A stretch of DNA of 58,140 bases, counting the filler, from Squatina squatina (Eukaryota): NCBI GenBank assembly GCA_031763465.1. It is 3 parts of 3 records of this genome, joined end to end, with 100 filler letters (N's around TTAATTAATTAA, not from the genome) between each part and the next. Parts side by side here need not be neighbours in the genome. Positions count along the whole stretch, not along the records: positions 22,405 to 44,004 come from JARFOE010000120.1; 2 more parts are not named here. One strand, given 5' to 3'. The notes under the pieces are model-generated. The model was not told the DNA's origin, searched no databases, and saw only the letters and a list, made by a program, of their open reading frames with translations. Both the position numbers and the translations under genes were made by a program. Each line of letters opens with the position of its first letter. Position 1 is the first letter of the stretch. Positions 37,374 through 37,513 of this stretch are shown here, piece by piece.

Positions 37374-37513
37374 CTTCCTCCATTTCGGACTGCGTGCTTC
37401 AGGCTCAAAAAGGCCACAACGTAGAAGGCAATTTCATTCAGAATTAACGTGGGGTGCTTTGTCCAGATGTCTCGTGGGTCACGCAGGGAAACCCACCAAT
37501 TCCAGTCGACCAT
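37374..37513 (-). CDS. Candidate first coding exon of an uncharacterised membrane protein (DUF7802-like, tentative)
   Basis: Strong Kozak aggATGG; MVDWNWWVSLRDPRDIWTKHPTLILNEIAFYVVAFLSLKHAVRNGG(R); phase-2 donor AG|GTAAAA. Family resemblance is from memory only. Confidence 0.6.

Follow-up and report, generated by a model that had tools for sequence, protein, structure and literature searches.

A DUF7802 exon beside CABP1 in Squatina squatina and a proposed sterol-related function for its gene family

Introduction

Between CABP1 and POP5 in the genome of Squatina squatina (GCA_031763465.1) lies a short minus-strand frame, which raises the question of whether it is an exon, to which gene it would belong, and what that gene would do. 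The original prediction had read it as an orphan ATG exon of an ancient, DUF7802-type membrane-protein gene, kept in sharks and lost in mammals. Here, we analysed the window, that is, the whole stretch of 58,140 nucleotides in which the frame was presented, together with the rest of the assembly, homologous proteins, predicted structures and bacterial gene neighbours. What was known is that the gene is annotated in other sharks without a function; what is added here is a testable functional lead and an apparent double loss. The literature that we searched, outside subscription journals, yielded nothing on DUF7802/PF25085 or its LOC ids, nothing on a sterol-linked loss of a gene kept in lamprey, shark and lungfish, and no report of the myxobacterial sterol Rieske-desaturase-methyltransferase operon described below.

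Results

The frame is an internal exon of a DUF7802 gene

The coding part of the exon spans 140 nt of the minus strand (window 37513-37374) and consists of 46 codons (MVDW...VRNGG) plus AG, encoding a short N-terminal segment followed by the first predicted transmembrane helix (model helix 21-44). The strong Kozak context of the start codon and the phase-2 GT donor directly after the AG are as originally described; the former consists of A at -3 with G at +4, and the latter reads AG|GTAAAA (37368..37373, minus). Additionally, a splice acceptor that had gone unnoticed lies 42 nt 5' of the ATG (ttgttttctccag|); it is predicted from a pyrimidine tract and CAG at 37556..37570 (minus), is followed in tandem by another AG 3 nt into the exon (CAG-TAG), and places the exon start at 37555. 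The 42 nt between acceptor and ATG (37514..37555, minus) hold TAG, ATG-TGA and TAA in frame, so the protein starts at 37513 and the feature is an internal exon that opens with a short stretch of 5' UTR. Splicing enters at about the same distance 5' of the ATG in isoforms of Mustelus. The minimal upstream frame ATG-TGA of the 5' UTR is located at window 37541-37546 (minus), beside the tandem CAG-TAG acceptor.

The protein search of the 46-residue peptide, which had been proposed beforehand, returned Pfam PF25085 (DUF7802) with an E value of 5.8e-8 and 32.4 bits, above the gathering cut-off of 27.4, and five shark proteins annotated as 'uncharacterized' (E 1.7e-21 to 4.1e-17, 83-89% identity; 11 candidates). 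The assignment to a DUF7802-type family is thus correct. Among the 1353 stop-free frames of the window, the exon is the sole strong match to a family profile that includes shark orthologs (E 2e-15; next 0.34). A chance frame is ruled out by the Pfam match, the shark protein matches and this profile scan.

Window positions 22405-44004 correspond to G000:C120:8319521-8341120 and are contiguous on scaffold C120, the exon being held in the stretch G000:C120:8333926-8335544; this contiguity rules out the CABP1/POP5 neighbourhood as an artefact of packing. The gene order, which rests on scaffold C120 with 63% N over the 200 kb examined, runs from a malectin exon (+) through CABP1 exons (-) and the DUF7802 exon (-) to a POP5 exon (+), beyond which lies a frame that we take to be RNF10. 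Specifically, a frame with the malectin (MLEC) exon is found at 27481..27684 (plus; PF11721, E 2.5e-12), and a CABP1 EF-hand exon at 31068..31226 (minus) carries an EF-hand Pfam match and agrees at 91% with residues 316-368 of the catshark protein P0137. A second, 31-nt CABP1 exon lies at 32096..32126 (minus; DRELGAEEIE) with 10 of 10 residues identical to the CaBP1 part of P0137. The POP5 exon, the sole one found in the assembly, is divergent from the DUF7802 exon at 41472..41633 (plus; PF01900 profile 45-94, one match). A phase-0 start at 32126 in CABP1 stands against a phase-2 DUF7802 donor, which excludes the DUF7802 exon as an in-frame CABP1 exon and bears out the earlier argument from phase.

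A dispersed repeat with many copies of 84-93% and frames that presumably represent remnants of LINE reverse transcriptase also occur in the window (36810-37081; 32931-34222; 56539-57648). At window 4146-18404 (minus), at least three tandem short-chain collagen genes show Gly-X-Y repeats and C1q-like C-termini (frames at 4146-4928, 11129-12988 and 15781-18404), and a Src-family kinase exon lies beside this array at 901-1197; we take the array to be the type X collagen cluster, which has expanded in cartilaginous fish, and the kinase to be its neighbour FRK.

Three intact exons are found in the Squatina assembly

A search of the genome for the DUF7802 family returned three matches, namely the C120 exon and two on the unplaced tiny contigs C387071 and C829860, and all of these exceed the PF25085 cut-off of 27.4 (33.1, 28.9 and 69.2 bits). 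The C387071 exon (L024:987-1102) is 116 nt long with a canonical acceptor, a GTAAGT donor and a phase-2 start, which matches the C120 donor in phase; the putative join, for which phase and orthologs speak, would complete Arg47 across the junction as in the orthologs. The contig C829860 carries residues 308-403 and the stop codon. Compared with eight shark orthologs, 38-42 of 46 residues are identical in the C120 exon, 29-34 of 38 in the C387071 exon and 73-84 of 96 in the last part, and the exons are nearest to Heptranchias and Heterodontus (42/46, 34/38 and 84/96). The first exon shares 29 of its 46 residues with the lungfish ortholog.

The expectation that other exons lie elsewhere therefore holds for two of them. 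Residues 88-307, including D134, were not found in the genome with the family profile, two full-length proteins and a 222-residue part, or with tblastn or an HMM over 200 kb of C120, and the ~403-residue frame is represented so far by residues 1-87 and 308-403. As controls, CABP1 residues 232-315 and all POP5 exons but one were likewise not found in the assembly. Since exons of these two genes are missing too, exon dropout in the 1.15-million-contig assembly is the simpler reading of the missing middle exons, and from the three intact exons and the control genes we infer that the DUF7802 gene is whole in the Squatina genome.

The gene is ancient and has an apparently patchy distribution in vertebrates

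Full-length orthologs of ~403 aa are already annotated as 'uncharacterized' in nine shark species, so the exon is not an orphan, and the full-length shark and lungfish proteins score 385-390 bits against PF25085. The named vertebrate orthologs come from these nine sharks, a lungfish, Callorhinchus and four lampreys, while other carriers include hemichordates, tunicates, amphioxus, echinoderms, molluscs, annelids, arthropods, nematodes, cnidarians, a sponge and an amoeba. No function is given on the ortholog entries; the catshark protein is filed as 'calcium-binding protein 1a' and that of Balamuthia as 'EXPERA domain'.

In a quick tree of 42 rows, the 11 vertebrate rows form one branch with SH-aLRT 100 and lamprey first. 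A FastTree of 229 of 286 sequences adds only further shark and lamprey sequences to this branch; the 57 left out had fewer than 270 aligned columns, and none had a vertebrate best hit. A shark-specific or horizontally acquired gene is ruled out by this vertebrate clade with lamprey, chimaera and lungfish, and the proposed antiquity is upheld by orthologs from lamprey to invertebrates.

The statement that the gene was kept in sharks and lost in mammals proved true for sharks and too narrow otherwise, since lampreys, Callorhinchus and lungfish retain it and the apparent loss is wider than mammals. Specifically, a ray-finned fish or tetrapod ortholog, at an identity of about 60%, would be expected within the best 120 of 312 hits, and none was present there; the search covered protein lengths of 221-706, and rays, coelacanth, gar and hagfish are likewise absent from the matches, taxon coverage being uncertain. 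A search of 50% clusters (150 listed of 1310 hits) would hide close orthologs through the clustering. This distribution suggests separate losses in ray-finned fish and in tetrapods.

Two shark annotations combine DUF7802 with other genes. In catshark RefSeq, the 403-aa DUF7802 protein is named 'calcium-binding protein 1a X1', and the 373-aa X2 isoform P0137 (XP_038647626.1) joins DUF7802 residues 1-183 in frame to the EF-hand core of CaBP1, with 38 other residues between them. This annotation implies the same neighbour in catshark and either read-through or a merged model; if real, the isoform would be a membrane-anchored calcium sensor, and the merged CABP1 entry deserves correction or verification. 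The independence from CABP1 that had been claimed therefore holds for the exon studied here, but the catshark isoform joins in frame from a later exon. In Mustelus asterias, isoforms X1 and X2 (P0129, P0131) begin with a sugar-transporter N-terminus (PF00083), which is joined by in-frame splicing to the exon carrying the DUF7802 start; this implies that the upstream neighbour differs in that species or that there is long read-through. Full-length stand-alone DUF7802 models exist in other sharks.

Predicted protein architecture and conserved residues

The AlphaFold2 model, computed from 117 sequences, has a pLDDT of 92.8 and contains long helices at residues 21-44, 48-68, 91-111, 118-139, 161-186, 197-230, 235-255, 274-292 and 368-390, with a beta-rich, Cys-rich segment at 293-367. 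About nine membrane helices are thus predicted in the ~403-residue protein. Charge and sequon counts fit a topology in which E63, DNFWH, D134, WWTWHDTD, R155, S163 and the Cys-rich segment would be luminal and the C-terminus cytosolic; a sequon falls within 293-367 in 65 of 117 family members. Conservation across 232 sequences is 98% for E/D at position 63, 91% for D134, 94% each for H146, D149 and R155, and 91% for S163.

At the C-terminus, Lys occupies position -3 in 105 of 117 proteins, and a second Lys at -4/-5 is present in 86; moving the end by 1-9 residues lowers the number of matches to 1-44. The KKxx/KxKxx pattern is a di-lysine ER retrieval motif, and animal DUF7802 proteins are accordingly predicted to be mostly ER-retrieved through this C-terminal signal. 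The Squatina protein ends in RRMKSE, with the -3 Lys only, and is not canonical di-lysine.

Several copies depart from the conserved pattern. That of Anopheles nili (P0169) is changed at 8 of 17 conserved positions, which culicine Uranotaenia keeps, and copies from two animal-parasitic nematodes are without D134. Many conserved positions, including D134, are changed in P0169 and in P0154, P0172 and P0182 from parasitic nematodes. These diverged copies may reflect relaxed selection or divergent paralogs.

The N-terminal half is related to CruF-type hydratases

We compared DUF7802 residues ~13-183 by HHalign with a Caroten_synth set of 18 bacterial proteins, drawn from 151 genomes and defined by Pfam rather than as assayed CruF. 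The probabilities were 96.4, 95.5 and 96.8 with E values of 1.3e-9, 1.5e-8 and 2e-10 over 158-163 columns, versus 0.2 (E 0.31) for another membrane family used as control, and E63 of DUF7802 aligns with an invariant Glu of the set. On these profile alignments, the N-terminal half of DUF7802 is evidently homologous to CruF-type carotenoid hydratases and falls within the same superfamily. No PF04240 match appeared in eight animal DUF7802 proteins (E up to 10) or in 18 bacterial ones (E up to 5). Methanosarcina acetivorans exceeds the cut-off for both DUF7802 and Caroten_synth.

Structure searches brought up MvINS, a mycobacterial Insig homolog (PDB 4xu4), as the top row, with Z 7.4 for the whole model (next 5.1) and Z 8.7 for the N-terminal-half model of P0160 (rmsd 3.2, 137/189 aligned; next 6.0), a moderate value of the size that chance resemblance between helical bundles can give; human Insig is also among the rows, with Z 4.2 and 4.9. 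Insigs are non-catalytic sensors. Foldseek gave E 3.1 for the Insig-type fold, and nothing reached E <= 0.001 for the DUF7802 models. Pfam INSIG (PF07281) had no match in the 8 animal or 18 bacterial DUF7802 proteins; a profile comparison with INSIG is uninformative, since neither the 201 genomes searched nor the controls contained a match to that family. By sequence, no solved relative of DUF7802 was significant. The link to EXPERA consists of one source name (Balamuthia), with no EXPERA Pfam match in the proteins scanned, and EBP/TMEM97 is not among the 50 VIA structure rows listed. The ESM Atlas returned DUF7802 clusters only, plus one unnamed cluster at 0.77.

Bacterial and protist relatives pair with FA_hydroxylase-family enzymes

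Within one bacterial phylum, 18 of 401 genomes have DUF7802, as 13 close and 5 distant copies; bacterial and shark proteins share ~28-31% identity, and some named bacterial relatives are Myxococcota. An FA_hydroxylase gene lies directly upstream on the same strand, abutting or overlapping, in nine of the 13 close copies, and three of the five distant copies follow an Acyl-CoA_dh_2 monooxygenase, which is HsaA-like, below cut-off, in the one compared. We further sampled 80 of 166 metagenome loci, which are relatives gathered with an alignment that includes operon-bearing copies. The FA_hydroxylase subfamily is directly upstream in 38 of the 62 loci with at least 400 bp upstream, and anywhere in the locus, rearranged cases included, in 44. 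Counted by cluster, the pairing is seen in 35/54 at 90%, 11/18 at 70% and 1/3 at 60% identity; with few clusters at lower identity, it amounts to few independent events. Source labels for this partner subfamily, which are automatic names, read lathosterol oxidase or sterol desaturase, and the partner family also contains non-sterol enzymes (weak OlsE matches).

A Rieske-KshA_C-SCP2 gene, or part of one, is present in 14 of the 80 loci, as found with a profile built from six such genes, of which five come from these same loci; two of the loci duplicate each other. The closest solved relative of the Rieske gene is 3-ketosteroid 9alpha-hydroxylase (KshA; E 1.4e-40). An operon of a KshA-like Rieske-SCP2 fusion, a sterol-desaturase-family enzyme and DUF7802 was observed in L122, L123, L132, L142, L148 (upstream of 6001) and L071:7783-11008. 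At L117:1829-5055, a desaturase-family gene and DUF7802 are followed on the same strand by a sterol methyltransferase (PF08498, E 1.7e-20), the YEYGWG motif of which we take to be C24-type. In L062, DUF7802 stands behind an MlaC-OEP-MMPL transporter set that is HpnN/BstA-like (below cut-offs) and scores best with hopanoid HpnN, and no oxygenase lies within three genes.

Most other neighbours scanned are unrelated or of no family. No carotenoid-synthesis Pfam family was found in the 89 + 71 neighbours scanned, one flavoprotein having weak NCBIfam matches below cut-off. An oxidosqualene-cyclase-like gene is carried by 3 of the 13 genomes with close copies versus 49 of 401 overall (Fisher p 0.20), and de novo sterol synthesis was rejected as the bacterial context for want of this enrichment.

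Among 43 proteins of long or odd length, the scan identified two DUF7802-FA_hydroxylase fusions, from the protists Yihiella and Artemidia; they group together in the tree and may share one origin. Their fusion domain is nearer to an intronless shark gene (34-37%, E 1e-24 to 1e-30), presumably CH25H, than to the bacterial partner, so that DUF7802 has partners from two distinct subfamilies. The Squatina genome yielded neither an ortholog of the bacterial partner (best E 1.2e-4) nor the Rieske partner (one query); in the search for an animal ortholog of the former, bacterial or unnamed rows filled the best 120 of 403. The Squatina genome has two intronless or long-exon FA-hydroxylase frames, L101 (G000:C189) and L102 (G000:C910681), which we take to be CH25H and a CH25H-like paralog; in L102, Pro replaces the expected His of the DHSG motif.

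Discussion

A proposed acid-catalysed step on a sterol

Its hydratase-type ancestry and ER signal, together with the recurrence of sterol oxygenases as partners, make DUF7802 a candidate for unassigned animal sterol reactions, including the phytosterol dealkylation needed by plant-feeding insects and nematodes. Our main reading, to which we give a probability of about 0.55, is that DUF7802 is an ER enzyme for an acid-catalysed step on a sterol after an oxygenase step, with substrate and catalysis put forward from homology and gene neighbourhood. The gene product, a predicted 403-residue multi-pass ER membrane protein, would probably receive its substrate directly after the action of a di-iron oxygenase or desaturase. 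E63 and D134 would then protonate the sterol to a carbocation, as proposed for hydratases, at the luminal leaflet of the ER, and the outcome could be addition or removal of water, a double-bond shift or the opening of an epoxide. The animal enzyme would do the same job as the bacterial one, and at 28-31% identity the two functions may also have diverged. By inference, the function of the Squatina exon is narrowed to sterol chemistry.

As to the reaction itself, cleavage of a C24(28) side-chain epoxide in phytosterol dealkylation is a tentative option, and hydration or dehydration of the 25-hydroxysterol/desmosterol type is to be held just as tentatively. By analogy, the desmosterol/25-hydroxycholesterol option would mirror the CruF reaction and would fit the CH25H-like fusion. 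Isomerisation of a ring double bond appears a little more doubtful.

The first of these options leads to a wider proposal, which we regard as speculative and rather unlikely. DUF7802 would be the missing C24-dealkylation epoxide lyase and, with a di-iron desaturase/epoxidase, would form an ancient module of predatory myxobacteria, protists and most animals, kept in lampreys, cartilaginous fish and lungfish and separately lost in ray-finned fish and tetrapods. To our knowledge, fucosterol-epoxide lyase is an activity without a known gene. If the lyase proposal were true, loss in vertebrates would explain why mammals cannot make cholesterol from phytosterols. The operons with a ring-type Rieske and a methyltransferase count against dealkylation, as does the retention of the gene in predators. 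According to the available portion of PMC3124498, microsomes carried out dealkylation steps later than the first, and the taxa that dealkylate include insects, nematodes, crustaceans, cnidarians and molluscs. A 2025 preprint (10.1101/2025.04.14.648839), in the part available, could not identify the enzymes before DHCR24, doubts that the dealkylation steps are conserved across arthropods, and says that Anopheles lacks DHCR24. A single case bears on co-loss with DHCR24: Anopheles, said in that portion of the preprint to be DHCR24-less, has a DUF7802 copy, altered at the 8 of 17 conserved positions.

Other explanations

The same chemistry might act on a non-sterol isoprenoid or lipid, such as a carotenoid, hopanoid, ether lipid or sphingolipid. 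CruF does act on carotenoids (PMC6013536, available text), the FA_hydroxylase family includes non-sterol enzymes as the OlsE matches indicate, most bacterial carriers are without a sterol cyclase, and the L062 transporter fits hopanoid HpnN best. We nevertheless judge this unlikely, given the KshA-like Rieske and SCP2 in 14 of 80 loci, the sterol methyltransferase of L117, the HsaA-like monooxygenase beside a distant copy, and the lack of any carotenoid-synthesis Pfam family in the 89 + 71 neighbours, barring the weak flavoprotein matches. Slightly less probable still is a non-catalytic, Insig-like sensor, carrier or chaperone of sterols or lipids that accompanies or controls the oxygenase or transporter encoded next to it. 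The MvINS and human Insig rows (Z 7.4 and 8.7; 4.2 and 4.9) would suit such a role, as would L062 with its transporter set and no nearby oxygenase, but E63, D134, H146, D149, R155 and S163 are 91-98% conserved and aligned with a hydratase-named family, and no Pfam INSIG match appeared in the 8 animal and 18 bacterial proteins.

A further explanation concerns Squatina itself, where the gene could be a decaying remnant or the exon mainly an alternative 5' exon of CABP1, in keeping with the undetected residues 88-307 and with the catshark annotation that merges DUF7802 and CABP1 into a 373-aa chimera. This we consider very improbable: all three exons found are open, have canonical splice sites where visible and are 76-91% identical to shark orthologs; exons of CABP1 and POP5 are equally missing; the phase of the exon does not fit that of the CABP1 exon at 32126; and stand-alone full-length models exist in other sharks. 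The main reading, an ER enzyme acting on sterols, remains our preferred one. The family spans myxobacteria, protists and sponges through to lungfish, and the vertebrate pattern would suggest that early vertebrates had a sterol activity which our lineage has apparently lost.

Comparison with known systems

Among the Insigs, MvINS is the top structural match of the modelled N-terminal half; the two stand apart in that identity is 11-14%, Z is moderate and the DUF7802 proteins scanned have no Pfam INSIG match. With CruF (PF04240), DUF7802 shares E, P, D, WxW and VP positions over ~160 residues; it differs in its additional C-terminal half of 200 residues, which includes a Cys-rich domain, and in its neighbours, which are sterol-type and not carotenoid genes. 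CruF itself is described, in the available text of PMC6013536, as a cofactor-free, membrane-associated carotenoid 1,2-hydratase that adds water to the carotenoid end. Phytosterol C24-dealkylation proceeds from sitosterol through fucosterol, its 24(28)-epoxide and desmosterol to cholesterol; the dealkylating taxa named in the available portion of PMC3124498 are all groups that carry DUF7802, whereas DUF7802 is also kept in predatory sharks and scorpions. The de-ethylase DES24 of Tetrahymena, known here by its description in the accessible part of PMC9485055, is an FA-hydroxylase-family enzyme like the partners of DUF7802. Within DUF7802 (PF25085), the Squatina gene belongs to the same family as, and is orthologous to, XP_067862388.1 of Heptranchias and XP_072443067.1 of Chiloscyllium, with nothing different in kind, and its further orthologs are lungfish XP_043924808.1, lamprey XP_032810300.2 and Callorhinchus LOC103182226.
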